A stretch of DNA of 64,000 nt from Trichormus sp. ATA11-4-KO1. Lineage in GTDB: Bacteria; Cyanobacteriota; Cyanobacteriia; Cyanobacteriales; Nostocaceae. Both the position numbers and the translations under genes were made by a program. Positions 2,572 to 36,155 of the stretch are shown here, one piece after another. Under the pieces are notes generated by a model. That model was not told the origin of the DNA. It did not search any database and saw nothing but the letters and a program-made list of their open reading frames with translations. How positions within the stretch are numbered: position 1 is the first letter of the stretch; each line of letters opens with the position of its first letter. The stretch is from positions 96,001-160,000 of the forward strand of contig JAHHIM010000055.1 of assembly GCA_019358915.1 (NCBI GenBank). The letters are read 5' to 3'.

Positions 2572-4189
2572 TCAAACCCCCTAGAATCCCTAAGGCTTCC
2601 TCTTCAGTAAACCCGTACGCTTCAGCCAAGTCTTTAGTAGTTACCTCTTTAGTTACTTTGTCAGCATCAGGACTTTCTAAGGTTTCTAAAGGTTCATCCG
2701 CGTTACTAATGTCTGCAAAGAGTTCATCTAGCTCTTTCTTAATCTTTTCTTCATCTTCTGGGCTAGCAGTGCCTACCATAAGTTGGGCTAGTTTCCCGTA
2801 GGTAATCTTTTTAGCTGTAGGTGGGACATAGGGTAACTCTTCAATAACCGAAAGCTGGTTGATTAAATCTTCCATCTTATCCACGGAGTAGCTACTTAAC
2901 CCGGTGGCTGTTACCTCAGGTAGCCCTAACATCTTAGATACTATACGGAGTATTGAGTTATACAAAGATATTACCTGTTGACCGTAGTCCTTCATAGAGT
3001 CTTCTAAGAGGCTCATATCCATAGCCTTGGAAGCCCCCGACTGGTCTAGTACACTTGTATTAGCACTAGCAAAATGTAGGGACACTAACTCCTTAATCTG
3101 CTGTTCAATCTTGTCTAGTTGCCCCTGGAGGTTAGCTAGCGCCGACCCAGTAGACTCTACGAACTGATAACCATTACCTACTAAAATATGTGCGTTACCT
3201 GCTAGCCTTAGTTCATTTGCGTAATCTGGCTGCTCATAAGTAATCCTAGGGTCATCGCTGGGGGGGACATCGGGGGGGGTGAATAATCGCTGAACTACCC
3301 CTGATAAATATCCCGCATCCGTCCAAGCATTTTCGATACGCAGGTGCTGTACCTGCTTATTGTAAACTTGTTTACATACCCACTTCTCACTTGGTAGTGT
3401 GAGAGTGGTTATCATTCTCTCATTTAGATTATGTTGCCAGACTTTAGTAGGCTCTAGGTACAGGTTGTCATCATCCCAGGGTAACCATTCTTTTTTCTTA
3501 GCGTCCCATACAGACTTTAGTGTGTCGTAGTAGTTACCCTCGCTATCCTTAGCCACCTTGAGTTTTACCTCAGCTTCATAAATAATATTCTCGTTTAATC
3601 CCCAATAAGTCCATCGACAAATAGTCTTAGGTTGCTGGAATGGCGCTACTTCTGGGTAGTAGTGCTTAGAAATAGCCCAGTCATCACCCCAGTAAGGGAT
3701 ATCTAAAGGGTCATATAAAACTACATAGGGGTTATTAGGTAACCCCTGGGATTCATAGGCAGTTCTAGGAGTGACACCCAAGTCTGGACGGTCTACTGCT
3801 GCCCAAATCCTTGAGTAGTAAAGTAAACCATTAAATATTTCGTGTAGTAGGTTAGCCTCTTTACGCTTGGCAACTTTAGGGCTAGCATTATTGGCTCTAA
3901 AATCAGACCAGAAATCATTATCAGCACCACTAAGGTGTACAGGGCTACCTGCAAGCTTGGCTGAGTACTTGTTGACCGCATCAGACATCACGGGCGTGTA
4001 TGAGAACTTCTGAAGACGCATATGATAGAGTTCGCTGTCTTCGTCAGGTCTCTTAGGTAGATAAAGTTGCACATTACGCTTGATGGCACATACACCCTCC
4101 TTGAGATCCTTGATAGTACGCCAAATAGAGCTGTGTGCCACATAATCCGGATGTTGTATTTCTAAGTCTCTAAGCCTTCTGGTTGACAT
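2564..4189 (-). CDS. Portal protein
   Basis: 541 aa directly downstream of terminase; HPDY..., YLPKRPDE..Y..RL and QSGASKAMD motifs typical of DUF4055-like portals. Confidence 0.85.
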   Translation of the reverse strand: MSTRRLRDLEIQHPDYVAHSSIWRTIKDLKEGVCAIKRNVQLYLPKRPDEDSELYHMRLQKFSYTPVMSDAVNKYSAKLAGSPVHLSGADNDFWSDFRANNASPKVAKRKEANLLHEIFNGLLYYSRIWAAVDRPDLGVTPRTAYESQGLPNNPYVVLYDPLDIPYWGDDWAISKHYYPEVAPFQQPKTICRWTYWGLNENIIYEAEVKLKVAKDSEGNYYDTLKSVWDAKKKEWLPWDDDNLYLEPTKVWQHNLNERMITTLTLPSEKWVCKQVYNKQVQHLRIENAWTDAGYLSGVVQRLFTPPDVPPSDDPRITYEQPDYANELRLAGNAHILVGNGYQFVESTGSALANLQGQLDKIEQQIKELVSLHFASANTSVLDQSGASKAMDMSLLEDSMKDYGQQVISLYNSILRIVSKMLGLPEVTATGLSSYSVDKMEDLINQLSVIEELPYVPPTAKKITYGKLAQLMVGTASPEDEEKIKKELDELFADISNADEPLETLESPDADKVTKEVTTKDLAEAYGFTEEEALGILGGLNG

Positions 4190-4237
4190 AAGGTGTTAAC
4201 CCTGTTAATATAGTAATATATTTAACTAGAAATAGTC

Positions 4238-4453
4238 ATGAAAGTAAATATAGGTGACACTTTAATACATAAGGGTGAGGCAAACCAGAATATTAAAAAG
4301 GTAGCGGTGATCAAAGTCGGGCGAAAGTATGCCTACGTATCTGACGGCTACTCTTCGATTAAGCTGTTAGATATAGGTAATGGCGTATTCTTCGACAGAT
4401 ACCGTGATTACTACTATACTCCTAGTGCTTTTGAGCGTTTCAAAAGTAAATGA
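4238..4453 (+). CDS. Hypothetical protein (counter-oriented, own promoter)
   Basis: 71-aa ORF; TTGACA(4183)-17-TAATAT upstream. Confidence 0.6.
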   Translation: MKVNIGDTLIHKGEANQNIKKVAVIKVGRKYAYVSDGYSSIKLLDIGNGVFFDRYRDYYYTPSAFERFKSK

Positions 4454-4464
4454 AATCATGTCCG

Positions 4465-5739
4465 TCAGCCCACCTTAGTAGCTAGAGCATATCGGGTGGC
4501 ATCACATGTGTGACTAAAGTAACCATCTGCTACGTTATCTGTAAACTGCCCATTTTTATCAGTTAGCCTATGGTAGGCTTCATGCAAATCATAGGCTTCC
4601 ATCCCATCTAAAGAATCAGTAACACTATCGTTAAGACCGGCTGTAAAAAGTAGGTCTTTTTGTTTTATTAACCCGTGTACTTGCCCAATACCTTCCCAGA
4701 TGGGATTATAGCCAGCGATGGCGTTACGATACCCCGGTTCACTACCTAGCGATCGCATGGCTAGAATACTTGATGGTCTACTAGGGTCACAATATGTGTA
4801 ACCTATAGACCATTTTTTAACCAACCTCTTAAAGTTACCATGTAGCACTGGGTCTGTTATAGGCTGGGCATTCCTAGGATCTGCGTTGGGAGACCAGCCC
4901 TCCAAATAGTACCACCGTCTATCTATACCTCTTCCTAGTACGCTAATGTTAGGGTGTAGGTCGCCCCAATCTACCCCGGCTACCACCAGGCTTAACTTAG
5001 GTATATCCCCAAAATATTTATTATCGATACCTAACTCGCTATAGATTTTACCAGGGAAGTCTACGAAGTTAGCCTCGTATTCTTGTCTGAATAACCTAGC
5101 TGGATAAGTCAGCCTGGCTCTCTCTATCTCTTCTCTAGGGATGGTAGGGTTAGCTGATGTCGGGTAAGTAAAGAAAGCCCAGTCTGGGTCATGCTCTGCA
5201 TTCTGGGATAAAACATATAGGTTATTTTGTTTACCTTTAGGGGTACCGGTGAACAAAGCCCGACTACCAGGCGTATCAGACATAGCCGGACGGATAACTT
5301 CGTCAAATGCAATCGGGTGAATATCTTGAGCCTCGTCTAACCACACAAAGTAGAGTTTAAGCCCTCTTAAACGGTCACCGCCTGAGTCATTGGCACCTAC
5401 TATCTTAATCTGCACATCATTAATCAACTTAGCGTACATAGATGTACGGTTGATTTCCTTGACCAGTTTATCTATCCCTGGGCTAGTCAGTATGTTGTAC
5501 AAAGGTTTCCAGATAACTTCCCTAGCCTGGTTAGCCGTAGGTAACACCCCAAGGACGGTTACAGGGAACTTAGGGTCTACTTTACCTTTAAAAGATAAAC
5601 CCCGGATGATTAACTCGGTGATACCTAGGGCAGTTTTGCCGAACCTTCGCCCGTTACAGGTGACCCTAAACCTTTTAGGGTTACTAAAGATTTCCCTTTG
5701 GGCTTCATGTAGCTTAAATGGTACAACTATCTGGCTCAT
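4465..5739 (-). CDS. Terminase large subunit
   Basis: LHEAQ, Walker A GRRFGKT, Walker B VWLDEA, TGTPKG, nuclease VDWG and HTCDATRYA. Confidence 0.95.
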   Translation of the reverse strand: MSQIVVPFKLHEAQREIFSNPKRFRVTCNGRRFGKTALGITELIIRGLSFKGKVDPKFPVTVLGVLPTANQAREVIWKPLYNILTSPGIDKLVKEINRTSMYAKLINDVQIKIVGANDSGGDRLRGLKLYFVWLDEAQDIHPIAFDEVIRPAMSDTPGSRALFTGTPKGKQNNLYVLSQNAEHDPDWAFFTYPTSANPTIPREEIERARLTYPARLFRQEYEANFVDFPGKIYSELGIDNKYFGDIPKLSLVVAGVDWGDLHPNISVLGRGIDRRWYYLEGWSPNADPRNAQPITDPVLHGNFKRLVKKWSIGYTYCDPSRPSSILAMRSLGSEPGYRNAIAGYNPIWEGIGQVHGLIKQKDLLFTAGLNDSVTDSLDGMEAYDLHEAYHRLTDKNGQFTDNVADGYFSHTCDATRYALATKVG

Positions 5740-9581: not shown

Positions 9582-9992
9582 ATGTTTGGTTTAGGTATTG
9601 CTAAGACGGCTTCAGGTATCGCTAAGACGGTAACAGGTAAGGTAAAGGATTTTAGGGGTGTGCTTGCTACTAACCCAGGGGCTTTAGGGTTAGCGCTACC
9701 ACCGCAAGTGCAACTTGGCATTAATGTAGCAAACTCCCTGGGACTTAAAATACCTTCGGCAGACGTGCTGAGTAAGCAAGTGATGTCGGAGTTAGACAAA
9801 GCAGTATTCGGGTTGTATCGTCCTAGCACTAAAGACCTTCTCAATGGTCTTAAAGGTAGAGTTAGCACTACCCCTGGATTAGACCAGTACTTGGAACAGT
9901 TAAGAAAGTCGGGTAACAGTACCCTAGATAAGATAGAAGAGGCTACCAATACCGCAGAAGACCTCCTATCATCTATTAACTGGTTACTTTAA
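9582..9992 (+). CDS. Hypothetical protein, possibly late/virion
   Basis: 136-aa ORF preceded by GATTGACTGAATA, the same 13-mer as before the tail-fibre gene at 30331. Confidence 0.6.
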   Translation: MFGLGIAKTASGIAKTVTGKVKDFRGVLATNPGALGLALPPQVQLGINVANSLGLKIPSADVLSKQVMSELDKAVFGLYRPSTKDLLNGLKGRVSTTPGLDQYLEQLRKSGNSTLDKIEEATNTAEDLLSSINWLL

Positions 9993-10559
9993 CATCCACT
10001 GGGTATCCTTAAACTCAAACATCCTAGGCTTGTTACCCCACTGTGATACGTAAGCCATCCATACCTCACCGTGTATATTTAAATACCCGCAGTGAGGTGT
10101 ATTAGACTTACTATCGGGGTATATTTTTTTACACAACTCCTGGATATGGTGCCGTACTTTAGCTAAGTTATGTAGCTTTTCGGTGATGTGAAAGCTCACA
10201 TACTCGGATAAACCAGGTTTAAGTTTACCGTTTTCATAACCACCATACCTTACAAGGGTTGCTTGTCTAGTTATCTCCCGTGTTTCTGTTTGGTAGAACT
10301 TACTGGCAGCAGCTAACCTGTGACATGCAGGTACTACTACCTCTATGTAGTGTTTTATCCACCATAGGCACTGCTTATAAAATCGTACTTTTTTAGTGTT
10401 ACCCCGATTCTCGTTTAGTGTGGTTAGATCGGCGTACTTATCCCATATTTGGTGAAGTTTGGCTACTTTATTTTTATCCTTCTTAGCCGCTTGTACAGCC
10501 CCCCGGATGTCTAAGGGTAGCTGACCCCAGTTAGTATCATTCTCATTGTTACGAGTCAT
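9984..10559 (-). CDS. Hypothetical basic protein downstream of the ncRNA locus
   Basis: 191-aa K/R/H-rich ORF starting 22 nt after the tRNA-like element. Confidence 0.7.
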   Translation of the reverse strand: MTRNNENDTNWGQLPLDIRGAVQAAKKDKNKVAKLHQIWDKYADLTTLNENRGNTKKVRFYKQCLWWIKHYIEVVVPACHRLAAASKFYQTETREITRQATLVRYGGYENGKLKPGLSEYVSFHITEKLHNLAKVRHHIQELCKKIYPDSKSNTPHCGYLNIHGEVWMAYVSQWGNKPRMFEFKDTQWMLK

Positions 10560-10581: not shown

Positions 10582-10657
10582 TGGAGCTAAAGGGAATCGA
10601 ACCCTTGTGCTAATGGTTTCACTTTGGCTTTACCACTAGACGACACCTACTAGCCCC
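10582..10657 (-). ncRNA. tRNA-like RNA resembling an isolated tmRNA tRNA-like domain
   Basis: Acceptor GGGGCTA/TAGCTCC+A with G3:U70; T-arm AAGGG-TTCGATT-CCCTT; stemless D-loop; 8-bp helix CTAGTGGT/ACCATTAG with 14-nt loop. Confidence 0.7.
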
Positions 10658-10659
10658 TT

Positions 10660-11286
10660 AGTGCTTAGTGATTTAAAGTAGCCCGAATACTTTAAACCAC
10701 TAGGCTATACCTTGACCCAGCCTCACCTCTAGCTTGGCTTTCAAGTCTCGGTATATTCACCTTTGGTTTTCCTTGGCTTTACTCAGGCTAGAGGACACTG
10801 AATAAAGACTTACTTGGTAGACCTTAGGTACTTTGTAAATGTAGATGATTTTTTAGGTCGAAGTCTACAGCTCCTTGACTTATGCGGCAAAGCGTCAACC
10901 ACTTTTACGTCCCCCGCTAACGGCTACTTACGTAAGCAGCTACCGCCCATGTATGAAAGTTCTGAGTACTTTGCCCTTATCGTGGGCTACTCTGAGAGTA
11001 CCTTATTTTACTAGCATTAATACTCCCAACGCGCTAGTGTCCCCTGAGTTATTTAATGACCGACAGGTTAGGTCTAATAGCGCTACCTGTAGTTGAGAGT
11101 ACAGGCTTTACGGTTAGCTGAGGCTCTGTCTTTGTCTTAGATTTGGTAGTCTAACCAGCCCTACTAATCCCCAACCGTAAATATTTGCTTTATTCACATC
11201 CAGACTCTGTAGCTCTCGCCGTTCTTTGATGTGGAGGGGTCACCAAACCCTCGCGCGCTATATGAGTTAGATTTCTCTCCCTCACC
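10660..11286 (-). ncRNA. Large (~620 nt) multi-domain structured RNA, ROOL/GOLLD-like in size and context
   Basis: No credible ORF; dedicated promoter; many nested long-range helices and possible kissing loops (see findings). Confidence 0.7.
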
Positions 11287-11291
11287 CTTTT

Positions 11292-11320
11292 ATAATAACA
11301 AGGTTTTCTAAGACTGTCAA
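11292..11320 (-). promoter_or_regulatory. sigma70-type promoter of the ncRNA locus
   Basis: TTGACA(11320-11315)-17 bp-TATTAT(11297-11292) with TGn extension. Confidence 0.8.
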
Positions 11321-11338
11321 CCCTATAATGAAAAATAT

Positions 11339-13504
11339 TTATTCCACTGGTGCGCCACCTATAACCGAGTTTAATCGTGTGCCCAACTTCTTGAAAATAT
11401 TAGCCGGGTTCTGAGCTACCCCGTTCTTTAGAGTCTCGAAGTGGCAATGGTCACCGCTACCTATTCCAGTACTACCCATTGTGGCAATCTGTTGCCCTTT
11501 CTTTACTTGCTCTCCTAACTTGACCAATAGTGTCGTGTTATGTAAATATCTGGTAGCCCAGCCGTTATCATGTCGGATTTTAAGCATATTCCCGGCTCCT
11601 CCTTGGAAGCCTATAGGTGCTACTACTACCCCGTCTCTAGCCGCATAGATTGGGGTACCTTTTTTATTAGCAATATCTATCCCCTTGTGGTTTCTACTAG
11701 CCCCAGGGATACCTGTGTTTCTCAGTCCGAACCCTGACGTTACCGTACCCGTACAAGGATATACCCAAACACCTGGGGTATCCGGTACGTTATTCTGCGG
11801 CATGGGCGCGTTAGGGGTATCGGCGGGCGTGTTATCCAGTACCTCTACCGGGCTGTACACATCTAAGGTAGAGGTATCAGAGGCTAACTTATGCGTTACT
11901 TTGTCGACTAACCAAATACGATCTAAGGGGCTAGGGAAACCTAGAGTACGCACTCCGTCCAATGGCTTCAATGGCATTGAAGCCGGGCTTAAGTTAACTG
12001 TAAACCTACTAGGTAGTCCCTTAACCCTCTTAAACCTAGACCTACTCTGATTTAATAATGCGTCCTGACCTGGACTAGGAGTCCCTGATATAACTTTAGT
12101 CTGGTTACCCGTAGCTGATATGTCTCGTGCTGGGTCTACGTCGATGTTCTTAGTTAGCATTTCCCCGGTTAGCGGTTCTACAGTTGCCTTAGGCTCCTCT
12201 TGAAGTAAACTAGACTCTTCCTGGTTTTTATCTAACGCCTTATCTACTACCTCATACTTGATAAGGTTACCTTCACGGGTTATCGTAAACCCTGTATCAT
12301 TTATTTTGTCCCTGGATTTAATAGTTAACGCCCCGTTATTCTCCGACACCCATAGTCCCGCATAGTTAGCCTCACGGATGAGTAACTGGTAATCGCTAAT
12401 ACCAGATTGGTCTATGTGTTGGTACAACGGGTCTAGAGTAGACTGCCAGTCTAACTTTATCTTATGGGCTTCTGCGATCGCTTGAGCTAGCTGTCTTAGG
12501 CTGGTATCCTTAACCGTCTTATTACGTTTCCGGCGGTTAAGTACCCACCGGATACCTTGCCCCATGACTTGAGTTTTACCTGTTTCATCCCACTTAGTAC
12601 CTTGATGGAAGAACTCGAAACTCACCCCGCACCAGTCGATGATTATTTTATTACCCTTGATAACCTCTTGTACGGTTTCAGGGATACTAGGGCGTAACGC
12701 GGATATGTCAGGTTCTACCTTAGTAGCTACAGGGGTTACTGTAGAACCTTTGTTATAAAATGCTAATCGTTCGTTATAGTATGCTATTGCTGCATCCACT
12801 GTCCAACCCGTCTGCTGTTCAGCAGCACCTGGAAGGCTAGTCCATTCATTCCTGCCTCTTCTTATTGCTTCTCGGATATCCCCAGCCAGTAAAGGCGCTA
12901 TCATCTTACGCTGACCCATTAACCAGAATGCGGCTCTATCCTGGGACGTGGGTAGGAAGTCCTTGAACTTACCAGGGTTCCTAGACTGTATATAACGCCA
13001 GGTCTTAGGTATAATCTGATACCTCCCGGATGCCCTTGTCCATTGAGTGATGGAAGTGGGATAACCTTTGGCGGCTTCTGCTTCTGTAAACCTAGTGTTA
13101 TTTATTCCTGTAAAGTACCATTCACGGGTTATTTGGAAGCTAAAGTAACCCCCAACCTCCCTAACAGCTATCATGTCCAGAAAAGCTTTAACCTGCGGGG
13201 TAAACGGTTCCCCGGTAGACTCTACGCCCACGTTACCATTACCGGGGGTTACTTTAGATGATTCAGGTGCCTGGTTACTGATTACGGGGCTATTATTAGG
13301 GTTAGGGGTTAACTGTCGGATACCCCCGGAGTTTATAGTATGGCTAATCAAAGCTGATGCTATTAAGCCTAGGGGGTCGGATAAAGTAATCATACAGTTA
13401 CTAGATTTATCATTTTGCCCAAGCGTTACTTCCAGGTCTATGAGTTCGTTCTTAGGCTTCCAGACCTGCCCAAAACCCTCTAAGCTAACCTCTACATCCC
13501 TCAT
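11339..13504 (-). CDS. Baseplate-hub-like protein with inserted lambda-R-type muramidase and C-terminal M23 peptidase
   Basis: KAFLDMIAVRE...ASGRYQI...EWTSLPG (lambda R-like); HKGIDIA, YLH, HCHFE (M23); YQHIDQSGISDYQLLIREA (late-control D-like). Confidence 0.8.
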   Translation of the reverse strand: MRDVEVSLEGFGQVWKPKNELIDLEVTLGQNDKSSNCMITLSDPLGLIASALISHTINSGGIRQLTPNPNNSPVISNQAPESSKVTPGNGNVGVESTGEPFTPQVKAFLDMIAVREVGGYFSFQITREWYFTGINNTRFTEAEAAKGYPTSITQWTRASGRYQIIPKTWRYIQSRNPGKFKDFLPTSQDRAAFWLMGQRKMIAPLLAGDIREAIRRGRNEWTSLPGAAEQQTGWTVDAAIAYYNERLAFYNKGSTVTPVATKVEPDISALRPSIPETVQEVIKGNKIIIDWCGVSFEFFHQGTKWDETGKTQVMGQGIRWVLNRRKRNKTVKDTSLRQLAQAIAEAHKIKLDWQSTLDPLYQHIDQSGISDYQLLIREANYAGLWVSENNGALTIKSRDKINDTGFTITREGNLIKYEVVDKALDKNQEESSLLQEEPKATVEPLTGEMLTKNIDVDPARDISATGNQTKVISGTPSPGQDALLNQSRSRFKRVKGLPSRFTVNLSPASMPLKPLDGVRTLGFPSPLDRIWLVDKVTHKLASDTSTLDVYSPVEVLDNTPADTPNAPMPQNNVPDTPGVWVYPCTGTVTSGFGLRNTGIPGASRNHKGIDIANKKGTPIYAARDGVVVAPIGFQGGAGNMLKIRHDNGWATRYLHNTTLLVKLGEQVKKGQQIATMGSTGIGSGDHCHFETLKNGVAQNPANIFKKLGTRLNSVIGGAPVE

Positions 13505-14884: not shown

Positions 14885-17800
14885 TTATACTAACATACTT
14901 AGTAACTGGCTAGGGGTTACTGTGTAACCTATGGGTAACCCTTGGGGCTGGCTAGGTGTTATTTGGGGGTCTTTAGGGTCTTTACGGAGGCAAAAAGGGT
15001 CTACGTCTACCGCAGAAAACCAAGCTACACCCGCCGGGATACAGTCTAACGACAAGGCGTCAATAAATGCGGCTCTAACGTATAAGTGGGCTAGTTGTAA
15101 TGCCCAAATAGCATTTCTGATGTTATTGGGGTCATCTCCCACCATCGTCCTAATCTCATCGTGGATGGTTATCAGAAGTTTCCCGTCTACTCCTAGTTTC
15201 TTATAGAAGTGTCTAGTTAGTAGGATTAACATATCTCTGAAGTCTACACCGGAACTCTGAATAGTCCAGTTTACTCTAGATGGTTTGAAGTCTTTAAACC
15301 CTGCTAGTGACCTACTCATTACATTTTTGAGTAAAGGTGTCTTGGGTACCTTGGAGTCCGCTATGGATTCCATAACGTTAAACGAATCCGATGCTAACCC
15401 CCCTGTGTACCTCTTGAAGCTTCCTAACGCCCCTTCTTCCCTTACGGTTTGACCCTTGAACTTATTGATAAATACTTTACTGTTAGCCTGTGCCTCAGCT
15501 AATGTCATTGTGGGGATGTTCTTTAGAAGCGCGTTAGTATCCCCGGTTAGCCCCTGTCCATAAATGCAGTTACCTGTGATAGTTATTGTGTCACCTTGAC
15601 GCATAACCCAAGTACCTAAAGCTGTAGTAGGACACCATACGGATGTGTTCTCAATGCGAGTTTTAACTAACCTCTGAGCAGTTATGTGCGGCTTGGTTAA
15701 GTTCATTTTTTGGACTTTATTACCGTATCTTGTACCAACAGAAACTCTGTAACCAATCAAATAAGCCGCTAGTTTAAAAGCTTCTGCATGATGCCCCATT
15801 TTCTGAGTTATGCACCAAGTGCCAGTGGCTCGATCTTGATGTCCATCACTAAGTAAAACCCCTAATACAAAAGATTGTAGCTCCCTGTAAGACATTTTCA
15901 GGATCTCCGGTATGTAGTCTGTGCCGTATTTAACCCCAAAAGACTTAAGACCATAACCTGAGCCGCCATTATAAGGGGCTGACACGGTTATATTATTTTC
16001 TTGTTTTATGTTATCTGTGGTGAATATCTGAAATATTGTGTATCCTTCCTTAACTCCTAGCTTCCTTACACGCTTAGACCCATACCATCTGTGATCACCT
16101 GTGCAAACTACAGACCACCCATGACTCATTTCTAACTTATACACCTCAGCGTCTTCGTGATATGTCATATGGGTTATAGGAGACCATTCATTAACCCCTG
16201 TTTCTGCGTTGTAGGCTAATATTTCTGTCCCATGAGATAACTCTGAGTAAACCCTCCAACCTTCTCTAGTCAGCGCTTGAGTATCCATTGGAACACAACC
16301 ATACACCCTGGTCTTAGTATTGTCTCTACTGATACCAGTCTCTTTCGCCATTAAGCTATGAATGTCTGTGGACGCTTCTAAGGTCTCAGCCTTAGCCCCC
16401 GCCACACAAATAAAGCCCATAGGAGTACTTGCATTAATACCTAACACTGAATCACCCATAATGCCCGCTAACCACGCTTCTTCACTGTCAATGTCCGCAC
16501 CTACAAGCACATAACCTTTAGGTGGGGCTACCATAGATTTAAGCTCGGTACCTAAGCGAGACTTTTTAGGGTTAGCCGCTACCTGCCAAAGGTTGTCGGC
16601 ACATCTCCCTGTTATGGTGCCGTTAACAAGTAACGAGGGTAGGGTGACAGGGAAACCTTCAGGCGATTCAGTATGGATGGCGGCTACTCGTTTACGTAAA
16701 CTTACCCAGTTTATTGTAGACACCTTTTCAGCTAACATCTGCTTTACTGAGTCATTAGCCGCACTAAGTACACCCTGTTCAAACGCTGCAACAAAGCCCT
16801 TAGCGAACACGGAGGTAACGTTTTTACCTCTAACTTCTGGATGTGGTAACCACCCGTGTACTTCTGTGTACCATGTTTTATTTTCATCATCCCAGAGCAA
16901 AGGCTCACCCCGCCAAGTTATCCCCATTACTATGGGCACAAAGCGCTTAGATAAGGTTAGGTCACCTTTGGCATAGTCAGATAGCACTTTACGGTACCAA
17001 GCGGGTAACCCTTTATTCTTCCCTGACTTCGCCGGATTCCAGTCTAACGCCAATGCTGGCTTAGGTAGGTTATCAGGGTCACACTGGGATAGGTATTCCT
17101 CCGCTAAAATCATCAAGTCTTTGTTAGTCTTTACGGCTAACTCTTGATACATATTCTCTGCGGTCTCGTAATACTTAGGAAACCTATCAGCATCTAAAGG
17201 TAACCAGCACGACCCTAATAAAATAGACCCGGACTGCGCGACTAAGCTAGGTCTATGGTTAAGGTACTCAGGGTAGAGTCTCTTGAATAGCTGTGCTGTA
17301 TGTAGCACATCTTCACAGCAATACCTGATAACCTCCAGCATGTTATCCCTAACCCAGGGTAGCCCGTCATTAACTATGTTATCTCTAACCCCTTTGTCTA
17401 GTGGTTTGTTAAAGAAGAACTCGTATACCGCAGATAAGCTGTTAGTTGCTGTCTCGCCCATCCAGTCTAGGTTAGTATCTTCGTCTAGATACAAGGGTCT
17501 TTGCTGGTTACTTAAACCACGGCATATTATCCACGCAGACATTAGGTCGAAGAATCGGTTACCCGTATCCTCCATCTGGTACTCAGATGATAAATAAGCT
17601 CTGTCATACTGAGTGTTGTAGTTTACCATTAGGTTATTAAAACCGTAGGGGATAATAGAGGGCATCTGGTCGAAGTCGGTAACCCAAAGTAGCCAACCCC
17701 TAGCAGACATAGCCACAGCGCAAGTAGGTAACCACCTATCCCCCACTTGCACCGTTTCAGTATCTTGGAAGAACACCTTCCCAGATATTGGCTTTTCAAG

Positions 17801-18163
17801 GAGTTTCCATCGCTCACCTTTAGGGCACCAGTATTGCCATTTCCCTTTAATGGTATTGAAGTTAGTGGGTAGTTCTGGGAACTCCCAAGACATAATAGAA
17901 CCTAACGCGTCAAGAGTACTCTTAGTATGTTCTGCGATCGCTTGCTCCAGTTCTTGTTCCAGCGTACCAAAGTTATCAGGGATAGGTAGTTCTGCAACTT
18001 CGTTATTGTCATTGGCTTGATGAAGCCCGAACGGCTTTAGTTTATTTTCTATTTTCTGTTTATCTAGAATACTTAAGGGATTTGAAGGGTAACCCAATAC
18101 CCTTACTTGAAGATCATCGGAAAGCTTTTTAATGTGCATTGGTAATCCTGGTTTATACAACAT
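14885..18163 (-). CDS. Family A DNA polymerase of mitochondrial Pol-gamma type, intein-containing
   Basis: GTITGRC...RLGTELKSMVAPPKGYVLVGADIDSEE, SRVNWTIQSSGVD and ITIHDEIR match Pol-gamma-type motifs; exonuclease DTE, YNTQYDRA, YCCED. Confidence 0.92.
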   Translation of the reverse strand: MLYKPGLPMHIKKLSDDLQVRVLGYPSNPLSILDKQKIENKLKPFGLHQANDNNEVAELPIPDNFGTLEQELEQAIAEHTKSTLDALGSIMSWEFPELPTNFNTIKGKWQYWCPKGERWKLLEKPISGKVFFQDTETVQVGDRWLPTCAVAMSARGWLLWVTDFDQMPSIIPYGFNNLMVNYNTQYDRAYLSSEYQMEDTGNRFFDLMSAWIICRGLSNQQRPLYLDEDTNLDWMGETATNSLSAVYEFFFNKPLDKGVRDNIVNDGLPWVRDNMLEVIRYCCEDVLHTAQLFKRLYPEYLNHRPSLVAQSGSILLGSCWLPLDADRFPKYYETAENMYQELAVKTNKDLMILAEEYLSQCDPDNLPKPALALDWNPAKSGKNKGLPAWYRKVLSDYAKGDLTLSKRFVPIVMGITWRGEPLLWDDENKTWYTEVHGWLPHPEVRGKNVTSVFAKGFVAAFEQGVLSAANDSVKQMLAEKVSTINWVSLRKRVAAIHTESPEGFPVTLPSLLVNGTITGRCADNLWQVAANPKKSRLGTELKSMVAPPKGYVLVGADIDSEEAWLAGIMGDSVLGINASTPMGFICVAGAKAETLEASTDIHSLMAKETGISRDNTKTRVYGCVPMDTQALTREGWRVYSELSHGTEILAYNAETGVNEWSPITHMTYHEDAEVYKLEMSHGWSVVCTGDHRWYGSKRVRKLGVKEGYTIFQIFTTDNIKQENNITVSAPYNGGSGYGLKSFGVKYGTDYIPEILKMSYRELQSFVLGVLLSDGHQDRATGTWCITQKMGHHAEAFKLAAYLIGYRVSVGTRYGNKVQKMNLTKPHITAQRLVKTRIENTSVWCPTTALGTWVMRQGDTITITGNCIYGQGLTGDTNALLKNIPTMTLAEAQANSKVFINKFKGQTVREEGALGSFKRYTGGLASDSFNVMESIADSKVPKTPLLKNVMSRSLAGFKDFKPSRVNWTIQSSGVDFRDMLILLTRHFYKKLGVDGKLLITIHDEIRTMVGDDPNNIRNAIWALQLAHLYVRAAFIDALSLDCIPAGVAWFSAVDVDPFCLRKDPKDPQITPSQPQGLPIGYTVTPSQLLSMLV
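15569..16297 (-). mobile_element. Intein (243 aa) in polymerase motif B
   Basis: YG/CVPMDTQALT...CTGDHRW...VWCPTT...TITGN/CIYG; one LAGLIDADG-like helix FVLGVLLSDG. Confidence 0.9.
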
Positions 18164-34756: not shown

Positions 34757-35842
34757 TCATATTGGCAACGTGGGTAAATCAGGGCGGTTAATCATATGCC
34801 CATAAGTCTTGATGACCATAGATGTATCACTATGACCAGCCAAATACGCAATACCCGTTAATGGTATCCCTTGCTCTATAGCATGGGAAATCATAGTATG
34901 TCTCATGGTGTACGGCTTACGGTAAGGCACTCCTTGGGCTTTTAACACACTAGCCCATTGGCGGTTACGAAAGTTATCTGCGTCTATAGGTCTCCCTTTG
35001 GGTGTGGTGAACACTAGGCTGTCAGGAGTAACCTTAGCGAGGTTAATAAAACTTAACACAGCTTGTAGCTCTAAGGATAATGGGAGGTGCCTAATATTAC
35101 CAGTCTTGGTCTCTTTACGTATTCTACGGTAGCCGTTACCCGTCAAATCTTTAGGTAAACTTTCCTTAATGGTTATATCCGCCCGGTCGAAGTCAATGTT
35201 ACCCCAGGTTAACCCGATGGCTTCGGAAGTCCTAACACCAGTAGCGAGTAAAAACCTTACAAAGGGGCTATAGTGCGGCTCTAGTGTGTCAAAACCTTCT
35301 AGTATAGCTTTTATCTCACTTAGTGTAAAGGGTTTTATTTCCTTGGGTTTATCCTTACGAGGTTTTATGGTGTCATAAGGGTTACTAAGTATGATACCTC
35401 GGCTAACCGCCCACTTGCAGCAAGCCTTTAGCATACTGAGACGTGTTCTAAAAGTCTTGGGGGATATCTCGGACTTGGTTAGCCATTGGATATCCTCTAA
35501 CCCTGGGTTGGTTTTAGTAATCATTACGCGCGTCCATCGGTAATGGTTAGCCTTGGTACTTTCCGTTAGCTCTAGTGAGTCTACCCATAAATCCCAAAGG
35601 TCTAGTAACTTCTTGGGCTTCGCATAAGGCTTAGGAGATAACCTGTAACTGTTTAATGTACTGTCGAAGTGCCCAGATAGGATATCATTCTGTATTTTGT
35701 TAGCGATCGCAGAAGCCGTAAATAAATCCCTTCTATTCCCGAAGTGTCCACCAGGTATAGGGTTGAAGCTATAGCGCTTACCACCAAAACTAAACTTCAA
35801 CTGGATAGACCCATTATTGTTAACTGGCTTTATTTCTCTCAT
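34757..35842 (-). CDS. int: Tyrosine integrase with N-terminal arm-binding domain
   Basis: TGVRTSEA, K, YTMRHT, AGH, Y catalytic motifs; adjacent to att. Confidence 0.95.
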   Translation of the reverse strand: MREIKPVNNNGSIQLKFSFGGKRYSFNPIPGGHFGNRRDLFTASAIANKIQNDILSGHFDSTLNSYRLSPKPYAKPKKLLDLWDLWVDSLELTESTKANHYRWTRVMITKTNPGLEDIQWLTKSEISPKTFRTRLSMLKACCKWAVSRGIILSNPYDTIKPRKDKPKEIKPFTLSEIKAILEGFDTLEPHYSPFVRFLLATGVRTSEAIGLTWGNIDFDRADITIKESLPKDLTGNGYRRIRKETKTGNIRHLPLSLELQAVLSFINLAKVTPDSLVFTTPKGRPIDADNFRNRQWASVLKAQGVPYRKPYTMRHTMISHAIEQGIPLTGIAYLAGHSDTSMVIKTYGHMINRPDLPTLPI

Positions 35843-35920
35843 TGTCCTAGTGAGGTCTTAAGGTTGACATTATGGCAACCGGGGAAACCATTAAGGGTCA
35901 AGAAGTTAACGTTAATGCTT

Positions 35921-35968
35921 GCTGCGATCGCACCGCAGAGGTCAGGGATTCGAGTTCCCTATTCTCCA
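35921..35968 (+). other. att site: displaced 3' part of tRNA-Ala(CGC)
   Basis: CTGCG-ATCGCAC-CGCAG anticodon arm, AGGTC, AGGGA-TTCGAGT-TCCCT, ATTCTCCA; no D-arm or correctly spaced 5' acceptor strand. Confidence 0.9.
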
Positions 35969-36155
35969 TTTTGACATTAAAATTAAAAACTCTAAATTTG
36001 AGCATAATTTTTCACAGACACGATACTGGGAAAATTTAGCAGGATAATACTTTATCAAATTCTAAATTCAAAAATATAGCTATTAAATAAGGTATGATGC
36101 CGGAATTGTTAACAGTAAAAACTTCCTTAAAATATGATTTAGATGATTCAAGACT

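Follow-up and report, generated by a model that had tools for sequence, protein, structure and literature searches.

A very probable gene for an uncatalogued, kissing-loop-rich structured RNA next to a tag-less tmRNA in a cyanobacterial prophage

Large ornate RNAs of bacteria and their phages are rare. ROOL and GOLLD, the described systems closest to the RNA reported here, occur in prophages near tRNAs, and ROOL averages 581 nt, with six multistem junctions along with three pseudoknots (Weinberg et al. 2017, PMC5737381). A cryo-EM study describes both as RNA-only cages held by kissing loops and A-minor contacts and raiA, another large RNA, as a monomer, and leaves open whether cages are common among large natural RNAs (PMC12286853). 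The function of the ROOL and GOLLD cages is open as well. Among small phage RNAs, a TLD-only form of tmRNA was published for mycobacteriophage DS6A (PMC4131195 and PMC11915505), and the former describes a TLD-like molecule that inhibits tmRNA, perhaps via SmpB titration.

We analysed a window of 64,000 nucleotides (the whole stretch of DNA under study). Judging from its sequence, the window very probably holds the gene for an uncatalogued, kissing-loop-rich non-coding RNA of a temperate cyanophage clade. We call this long RNA of the window RNA W, and we are highly confident that it is a real structured RNA gene. The features of the locus and the counterpart RNAs of related phages are collected in Table 1.

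Table 1. Features of the RNA W locus and counterpart RNAs in related phages (positions without a locus name are those of the window)
Feature	Location	Strand	Remarks
Tag-less (TLD-only) tmRNA, 76 nt	10582..10657	-	RF00023 41.3 bits, E 7.6e-15
Large structured ncRNA (RNA W), ~630 nt	10658..11287	-	3' end placed by the predicted RNase P cleavage at 10657
5' hairpin, GAAA tetraloop	11262..11285	-	Pair probability ~0.9
5' multibranch domain, 7-bp closing helix	11077..11261	-	z -3.1, 0/60 shuffles
Hairpin P3; UGGU loop 11247-11241 with ACCAAA loop 11148-11142 (kissing loop 1, 7 bp)	11234..11252	-	
Kissing loop 2; loop 11099-11092 with loop 11030-11023, 8 bp	11023..11099	-	Candidate pairing, W only
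Central multibranch domain; helices 11076-11070/10824-10818 and 11003-10997/10832-10826	10818..11076	-	z -0.15
3' module; hairpin 10807-10777 and multi-stem hairpin 10754-10707	10707..10807	-	z of 3' domain -3.4
15-bp terminal hairpin	10666..10702	-	Probability 0.99
Sigma-70-type promoter with overlapping operator-like motif	11292..11322	-	-35 box 11320-11315, -10 box 11297-11292
Upstream tail protein, C-terminal peptidase domain	11339..13504	-	Synteny anchor; 54% identical in L314
191-aa orphan ORF, directly downstream	9984..10559	-	Possibly co-transcribed; no homologue found
Convergent 136-aa clade gene	9582..9992	+	Synteny anchor; recurs in relatives
Integrase and right attachment site	34757..35981	-	61-bp repeat, 3' part of host tRNA-Ala-CGC
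RNA A	L314:5189-5845		Slot of W, between tail gene and convergent 136-aa gene; z -3.7
RNA U	L432, ~585 nt of a 1,100-nt gap		Before convergent 136-aa gene; z -3.6
RNA G	L550:6352-6835		99% identical copy in G770 (L550/L554); z -4.1
RNA V	L493, ~490 nt		Directly upstream of tail gene
RNA T	L497, ~315 nt		Outside W's slot; tRNA-Ile 4 nt after; z -2.9

The left 36 kb of the window is the right part of a 46.6-kb prophage on contig C55 of the window's genome (G000), with genes for portal, terminase, tail sheath, baseplate, DNA polymerase, primase, and integrase. The prophage looks complete by its two attachment repeats, a 61-bp pair in tRNA-Ala(CGC) at window positions 35921-35981 and at G000:C55:85326-85386; similar tRNA-Ala 3' ends are present in loci L074 and L104. 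The closest named terminases are those of Leptolyngbya phage Lbo402-yong5 and Microcystis phage Mic1, both at ~37%. The DNA polymerase (14885-18163, minus strand) is a relative of the 'polymerase gamma' type known from Mic1 and A-HIS phages, and its apparent insert (residues ~625-810, missing in L314) matches intein-containing polymerases. One DNA sequencing run, possibly the source, shows no variants, and no RNA sequencing run carrying RNA W was found among the runs searched.

The consensus promoter that an earlier note had claimed for the RNA (TTGACA-17-TATTAT, minus strand) is present at 11320-11292, with a score of 11/12 and an extended -10 TG. None of the 12 sites in 4 kb scores higher, though it shares this rank; shuffles lead one to expect 6.4 sites. 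What the note had missed is that the promoter belongs to a phage-wide, operator-bearing family: a GTTGAC-N7-GT(Y/A)AACC palindrome lies over the -35 box at 11 of the 29 promoter-like sites listed in the prophage (window 4183, 8345, 9164, 14587, 14853, 19025, 22559, and 26588, plus three sites left of the window). The copy at RNA W (11322-11302) is degenerate, its left half intact and its right half with two differences, and the right half is likewise degenerate at the promoters of RNA U and RNA G. The palindromes are probably repressor operators, and the RNA W promoter may be a repressor-controlled phage promoter that is less tightly held. Two further prophage promoters have a different palindromic spacer in common. 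The stretch is ORF-free as claimed, with no stop-free stretch of more than 41 codons on the sense strand and only two TTG-started ORFs (66 and 73 aa) on the antisense strand; as to a conserved ORF across the region, which the note had named as a counter-argument, the sense strand is without coding capacity.

We placed the start of RNA W 5-7 nt past the -10 box. All six helices that had been read by eye exist as base pairing at the coordinates given, and the minus strand is favoured, as the note had it, because a G-U pair in two helices turns into a mismatch on the plus strand; this agrees with the promoter. The pairing 10787-10794/10726-10733 had been taken for a nested helix and is instead a contact between two hairpin loops of the 3' module (10794-10787 with 10733-10726, 8 bp; kissing loop 3). 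As for the two kissing loops proposed, TTTGGT with ACCAAA stands and extends to 7 bp, whereas CTCTC with GAGAG was rejected, given a 4-nt tetraloop and a better-fitting 8-bp partner at 11030-11023.

The folding energy is only moderately low compared with shuffles (MFE z -2.9 for the minus and -2.4 for the plus strand, with 0/20 shuffles for each). Since 16 control windows of the prophage range from z +1.0 to -2.5 (8 shuffles each), folding energy alone is weak evidence. Five of the six named helices have a pair probability of 0.06 or less in the pseudoknot-free ensemble, and that of the 7-bp helix closing the 5' domain is 0.06 in the full ensemble. The nested model of the earlier note reaches -174 kcal/mol against an MFE of -190 kcal/mol, with loop-loop pairs left uncounted. 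Our hand-built model joins hairpin loops in three places, over 7, 8, and 8 bp; three pairings of at least 7 bp arose in 0.35% of 2000 shuffles of the loop bases, a figure to be read with the model having been drawn in knowledge of the loops. For kissing loop 2 and the outer central helix, no equivalent could be placed in the counterpart RNAs.

Some repeats were also observed. The 8-mer AAAGCCAA occurs on the minus strand at 10631, 10741, and 10780, three copies within 150 nt (two in the 3' module, one in the mini-tmRNA loop), with one more elsewhere in the prophage. Two near-identical 9-mers (11196-11188 and 10785-10777, minus strand) can each pair with 10807-10799, a possible long-range alternative to hairpin P17. 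Locus L314 has a 10-mer in common with the window site 11196-11188, right at its second promoter.

Counterparts of RNA W were found through relatives of the terminase, as direct nucleotide searches gave none. The ten closer records (L314, G744-G750, G770, and G893) have terminases 36-70% identical to that of the window. Six of the ten records hold five distinct RNAs, none of them alignable by BLAST or nhmmer. In each of these six, an ORF-free structured RNA comes after a promoter, mostly in the slot that RNA W occupies; the complete G744 showed no such RNA, and neither did G745, G746, and G750 (53, 70, and 34% complete). With RNA W included, lengths run from ~310 to 660 nt. RNA U starts with W's hexamer at an equal distance from the -10 box, and at RNA G the order is promoter, RNA, orphan ORF, and convergent gene. 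A tRNA-like gene adjoins the RNA in W and T and not in A, U, V, or G; W followed by its mini-tmRNA parallels T followed 4 nt later by tRNA-Ile.

Several features of these loci were noted in passing. RNA V has an internal ~45-nt duplication and a 12-mer in common with RNA A. Between L497:4843-4857 and ~5315-5329 there is perfect complementarity over 15 bp, the terminal loop region of RNA T matching a site ~470 nt downstream, past the tRNA-Ile gene. Locus L432 (oriented 3870-4340) continues ORF-free for ~470 nt beyond its W-like part, the last 400 nt with z -1.2. Other long ORF-free gaps of the G893 and G770 prophages are L549:13778-14538, L553:16434-17199, and L551:7612-8550.

The pairings of the model were compared across the RNAs by helix equivalences set by hand, since MAFFT gives no structural alignment. 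Kissing loop 3 measures 8 bp in W, 9 in A, 7 in U, 6 in V, 7 in T, and 9 in G, and its changes are compensatory: a U-A pair becomes C-G in RNA A, and RNA V pairs with a different sequence. In RNA G, the 5' partner can also join a local stem. The 3' loop pairing is kept as CCU with AGG and the 5' pairing as UGGU with RCCA, again with compensatory changes. All five RNAs tested (W, A, U, T, and G) have YUGGUR within their first 140 nt with an RCCA partner downstream, and in four of the five it lies in a hairpin loop, against a background of 18-20% for presence and ~9% for a loop position; the motif is absent from the 5' part of RNA V. Equivalents of the inner central helix and its 3' junction, carrying compensatory changes, occur in A and U, and W, A, U, and G all end in a long hairpin.

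A descriptor that combines loop pair, junction, and promoter, written after seeing W, A, and U, finds all three; it matched once in the 11.9 Mb of host sequence, of which W is a part, and not at all in the 8.7 Mb of 489 other loci. The one blind test with a positive outcome used a covariance model built solely from the 3' module of W: in 412 kb it put RNA V at the top (25 bits, E 0.004), and changed pairs preserve the 10-bp stem. RNAs A, U, T, and G escape this model, and when the model is built from RNA A instead, U comes no higher than third (E 1.7 in 1.67 Mb) and W is not found. Because the models miss most relatives, a single family is argued from motifs picked by eye and partly post hoc. 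On balance, we lean towards all six RNAs (W, A, U, T, V, and G) being one family.

Wider searches returned little. BLAST of RNA W in 389 family genomes gave, besides G000, 16 short matches, mostly to the tRNA-like T arm, and phage and plasmid collections held no nucleotide homologue of W, nor of A and U when these were the queries. In 19 family prophages, G528, and Lbo402-yong5 (terminase 32-42% where present) there was no BLAST, nhmmer, or significant model match; the second-ranked match of model R1 lies in a distant family prophage locus at L058:5215-5361 (plus strand, E 0.46). IMG/VR motif scans for kissing loop 3 (8 loci and 30 loci) retrieved only W or U and chance matches. Terminase scans by alignment gave, among the matches listed, mostly distant phages; known terminase relatives include 17 at 56-72% identity. 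Neither model R1 nor the loop pattern matched Nodularia phage kac65v151 or Mic1 convincingly.

The Infernal check against Rfam suggested by the earlier note was run on RNA W, at gathering scores and at E<10, and gave no match to ROOL, GOLLD, OLE, HEARO, RNase P RNA, 6S, or group I/II introns. This goes against its idea of a divergent ROOL or GOLLD, for which not even a match at E<10 appeared, and its other option, a new class, fits best: none of RNAs A, U, T, and V matches any Rfam model either. With no Rfam match, we regard the RNAs as an uncatalogued family and not as members of ROOL, GOLLD, OLE, or the introns. The partner-gene or exon setting of OLE, HEARO, and introns is missing as well: RNA W begins at its own promoter and interrupts no gene. 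Our literature search, which covered few subscription papers or supplements, found no description of RNA W.

Some structural candidates were tried and set aside. A hairpin resembling domain 5 of group II introns (10927-10894) had no Rfam match, and HDV/theta, hammerhead, and pistol ribozymes had no match by eye or in Rfam. A phi29-type packaging RNA was dropped because the phage has an ordinary large terminase and the RNA is missing in some clade members. Canonical k-turns were dropped for register misfits in RNA A, and their motif was kept as a recurrent internal loop only.

Directly adjoining the long RNA, which the earlier note had rightly picked out, is an element absent from its feature list: a tag-less mini-tmRNA that begins 8 nt past the 15-bp terminal hairpin of RNA W. 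It has an alanine acceptor stem with G3-U70 and A73, a T arm, and a capped P2 helix, and has no encoded CCA, no D stem, and no tag frame. In the alignment to the tmRNA model, ~10 nt replace the 304-nt central part that holds the pseudoknots and the tag ORF. Its 41.3 bits fall below the gathering score of 47, which is exceeded in 20 of 20 other family loci scanned, and both ARAGORN and Rfam at gathering scores leave 10657-10582 undetected. A permuted two-piece tmRNA was rejected, since the 5' acceptor strand comes first and the permuted model reaches 27.8 bits against 47.

An IMG/VR pattern scan assembled a mini-tmRNA family of at least 120 loci and at least 82 distinct sequences of 63-92 nt, the one in the window included. 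At positions left free by the pattern, T-stem pairs 1-3 form in 82 of 82 and P2 pairs 1-5 in 77-81 of 82, and 7 of the 10 predicted pairs show double changes (41 aligned sequences). By this anatomy, the window element is a phage TLD-only tmRNA of an already known type. It carries a GUC/GCAC variant of the GAC/GGAC motif that is rare (5 IMG/VR loci), and among the 389 family genomes only G000 has a mini-tmRNA. Mini-tmRNAs are often located in tRNA islands. The 120 loci listed show no similarity to RNA W, and no mini-tmRNA lies beside RNAs A, U, T, V, or G; hence the mini-tmRNA is not an obligatory partner of the long RNA. We see it as a cyanobacterial example of a phage RNA that is widespread and under-annotated and may suppress trans-translation in the host. 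In another locus, L231, an ORF-poor island with tRNA-like genes lies 900 nt upstream of its mini-tmRNA, with two repeats that resemble by eye what we take to be the HDV/theta ribozyme motif.

The reading that we tentatively favour is as follows: one phage transcript would be cut by RNase P into a self-assembling kissing-loop RNA in the style of ROOL and GOLLD and an SmpB-binding tmRNA decoy. Host RNA polymerase would transcribe RNA W from the phage promoter under repressor-type control, mainly after induction, and perhaps leakily in the lysogen, given the degenerate operator copy. Since the listing shows no terminator from the promoter to the downstream ORF, the transcript would continue into the mini-tmRNA as a single precursor. 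RNase P processing is established for tRNAs and tmRNA, and the host enzyme would cleave here at 10657, the first base of the tRNA-like element, freeing the mini-tmRNA and leaving a long RNA that ends just past the 15-bp hairpin. The mini-tmRNA would then undergo 3' trimming, CCA addition (predicted because CCA is not encoded), and alanylation. RNA W would fold via kissing loops, some of them formed between copies, into an RNA-only oligomer or cage that may act like ROOL and GOLLD as a stable scaffold or sponge in the lytic cycle; against this, the loop pairings would look no different within a single molecule, and raiA, likewise large, is a monomer. The alanylated mini-tmRNA would most likely bind SmpB and compete with host tmRNA, an idea supported by the full tmRNA and SmpB that the host genome also encodes and by the inhibition of tmRNA by a TLD-like RNA. 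The mini-tmRNA would be a passenger of an RNA island shared with the long RNA.

Other explanations have to be weighed against this proposal. The locus could be an island in which two or three smaller RNAs or structured leaders are independent of one another, shuffled between phages and without a single cooperative fold. We find this rather unlikely: kissing loop 2 would link the 5' domain of RNA W to its central domain, no promoter or terminator is listed within 11287-10658, and the 5' and 3' modules keep an identical order in W, A, U, T, and G. What speaks for it is that RNA A is divided into ~210 and ~400 nt, a possible two-piece form, by a U-run together with another consensus promoter (L314:5409; region 5390-5445); that the energy of W's central domain is no better than that of shuffles; that RNA V has the 3' module without the 5' UGGU motif; and that mini-tmRNAs are frequent in tRNA islands. 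It is also unlikely, in our judgement, that RNA W acts as a monomer or protein-bound decoy whose intramolecular fold titrates some protein of the host or the phage (such as an anti-phage nuclease or RNA-binding regulator), possibly together with the downstream orphan protein. The RNA does adjoin another decoy-type RNA, and a protein might bind at the GA-GAC/GUC-AA internal loop that recurs. In W, A, and G the RNA is followed by an orphan ORF, and the 191-aa ORF has a weak 30-aa similarity to the one after the L314 RNA (pairwise E 0.001); however, it has no detectable similarity to the ORF after RNA G, no such ORF stands directly after RNA U, and homologue searches of the downstream ORF identified no protein partner.

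That there is no functional RNA at all, only decayed or spacer DNA with helices and loop complementarity arisen by chance, seems very improbable to us. The modest z values, approached by the control windows, the lack of an alignable homologue, and the partly post hoc descriptors would fit such a reading, but a promoter and a long ORF-free stretch recur in W's slot of divergent phages with the loop pairings conserved, the blind 3'-module model found RNA V, and RNA G is better conserved than its neighbouring ORF (between G893 and G770, 3 changes over 484 nt in the RNA and 14 over 675 nt in the ORF; Fisher p 0.048). Hardly credible is a long RNA that serves as the detached mRNA-like half of a tmRNA and adds an altered tag in trans with the mini-tmRNA. 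It would account for the long RNA adjoining a TLD-only tmRNA and for an A-rich linker after which GCA-AAU opens a 25-codon frame starting ANIY, where the host tag starts ANNI. Yet this frame lacks a degradation-type tag end, the long RNA has no Rfam tmRNA similarity, a resume-codon pattern matches none of W, A, and U, and the five counterparts have no mini-tmRNA beside them.

Returning to the self-assembling RNA and its tmRNA decoy, the cage reading can be taken further. RNA W could represent an RNA-only cage of a third kind, and the first in phages of cyanobacteria, which would consist of exchangeable kissing-loop modules and would shelter or dock a co-matured tRNA-like cargo; this is speculative and we consider it improbable. 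If true, the cargo would be the mini-tmRNA in W and tRNA-Ile in T. The P2 loop of the mini-tmRNA could pair over 6 bp with the conserved UGGU loop, which would couple assembly to ribosome-rescue control. A family with size variants of ~310-660 nt and swapped loops amounts to a set of natural compensatory mutants and offers a direct test of how common cages are, with copies residing in prophages of the high-quality genomes G000, G770, and G893.

Compared with the known systems, RNA W is like ROOL in its size (630 nt), its low sequence conservation, and its position in a prophage near a tRNA-like gene, and may also be like it in its multistem junctions and its about three pseudoknot or kissing pairings; the model has at least two multibranch domains and three loop-loop pairings. 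It differs in having no covariance-model match at E<10, in its apparent topology, and in its cyanophage clade. With GOLLD it shares the setting of a phage or prophage RNA beside tRNA genes, separable 5' and 3' domains, and kissing loops. GOLLD is often longer than 800 nt, against 310-660 nt in the W family, the tRNA-like gene of W lies 3' of the RNA, and no match to the GOLLD model, or to the conserved 3' domain that matters most in it, was found. In MALAT1/mascRNA-type processing, an RNase P cut at a downstream tRNA-like element sets the 3' end of a long RNA; the likeness to RNA W is an analogy only, in a bacterial phage context and with no sequence relation (mascRNA model E 0.12). The DS6A TLD-only tmRNA, for which Mao et al. 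2009 is reportedly the source, has the same alanine acceptor stem, T arm, short capped P2, and missing tag frame as 10657-10582, whereas the element of the window belongs to a cyanobacterial prophage, carries the GUC/GCAC variant, and lies downstream of a large RNA.
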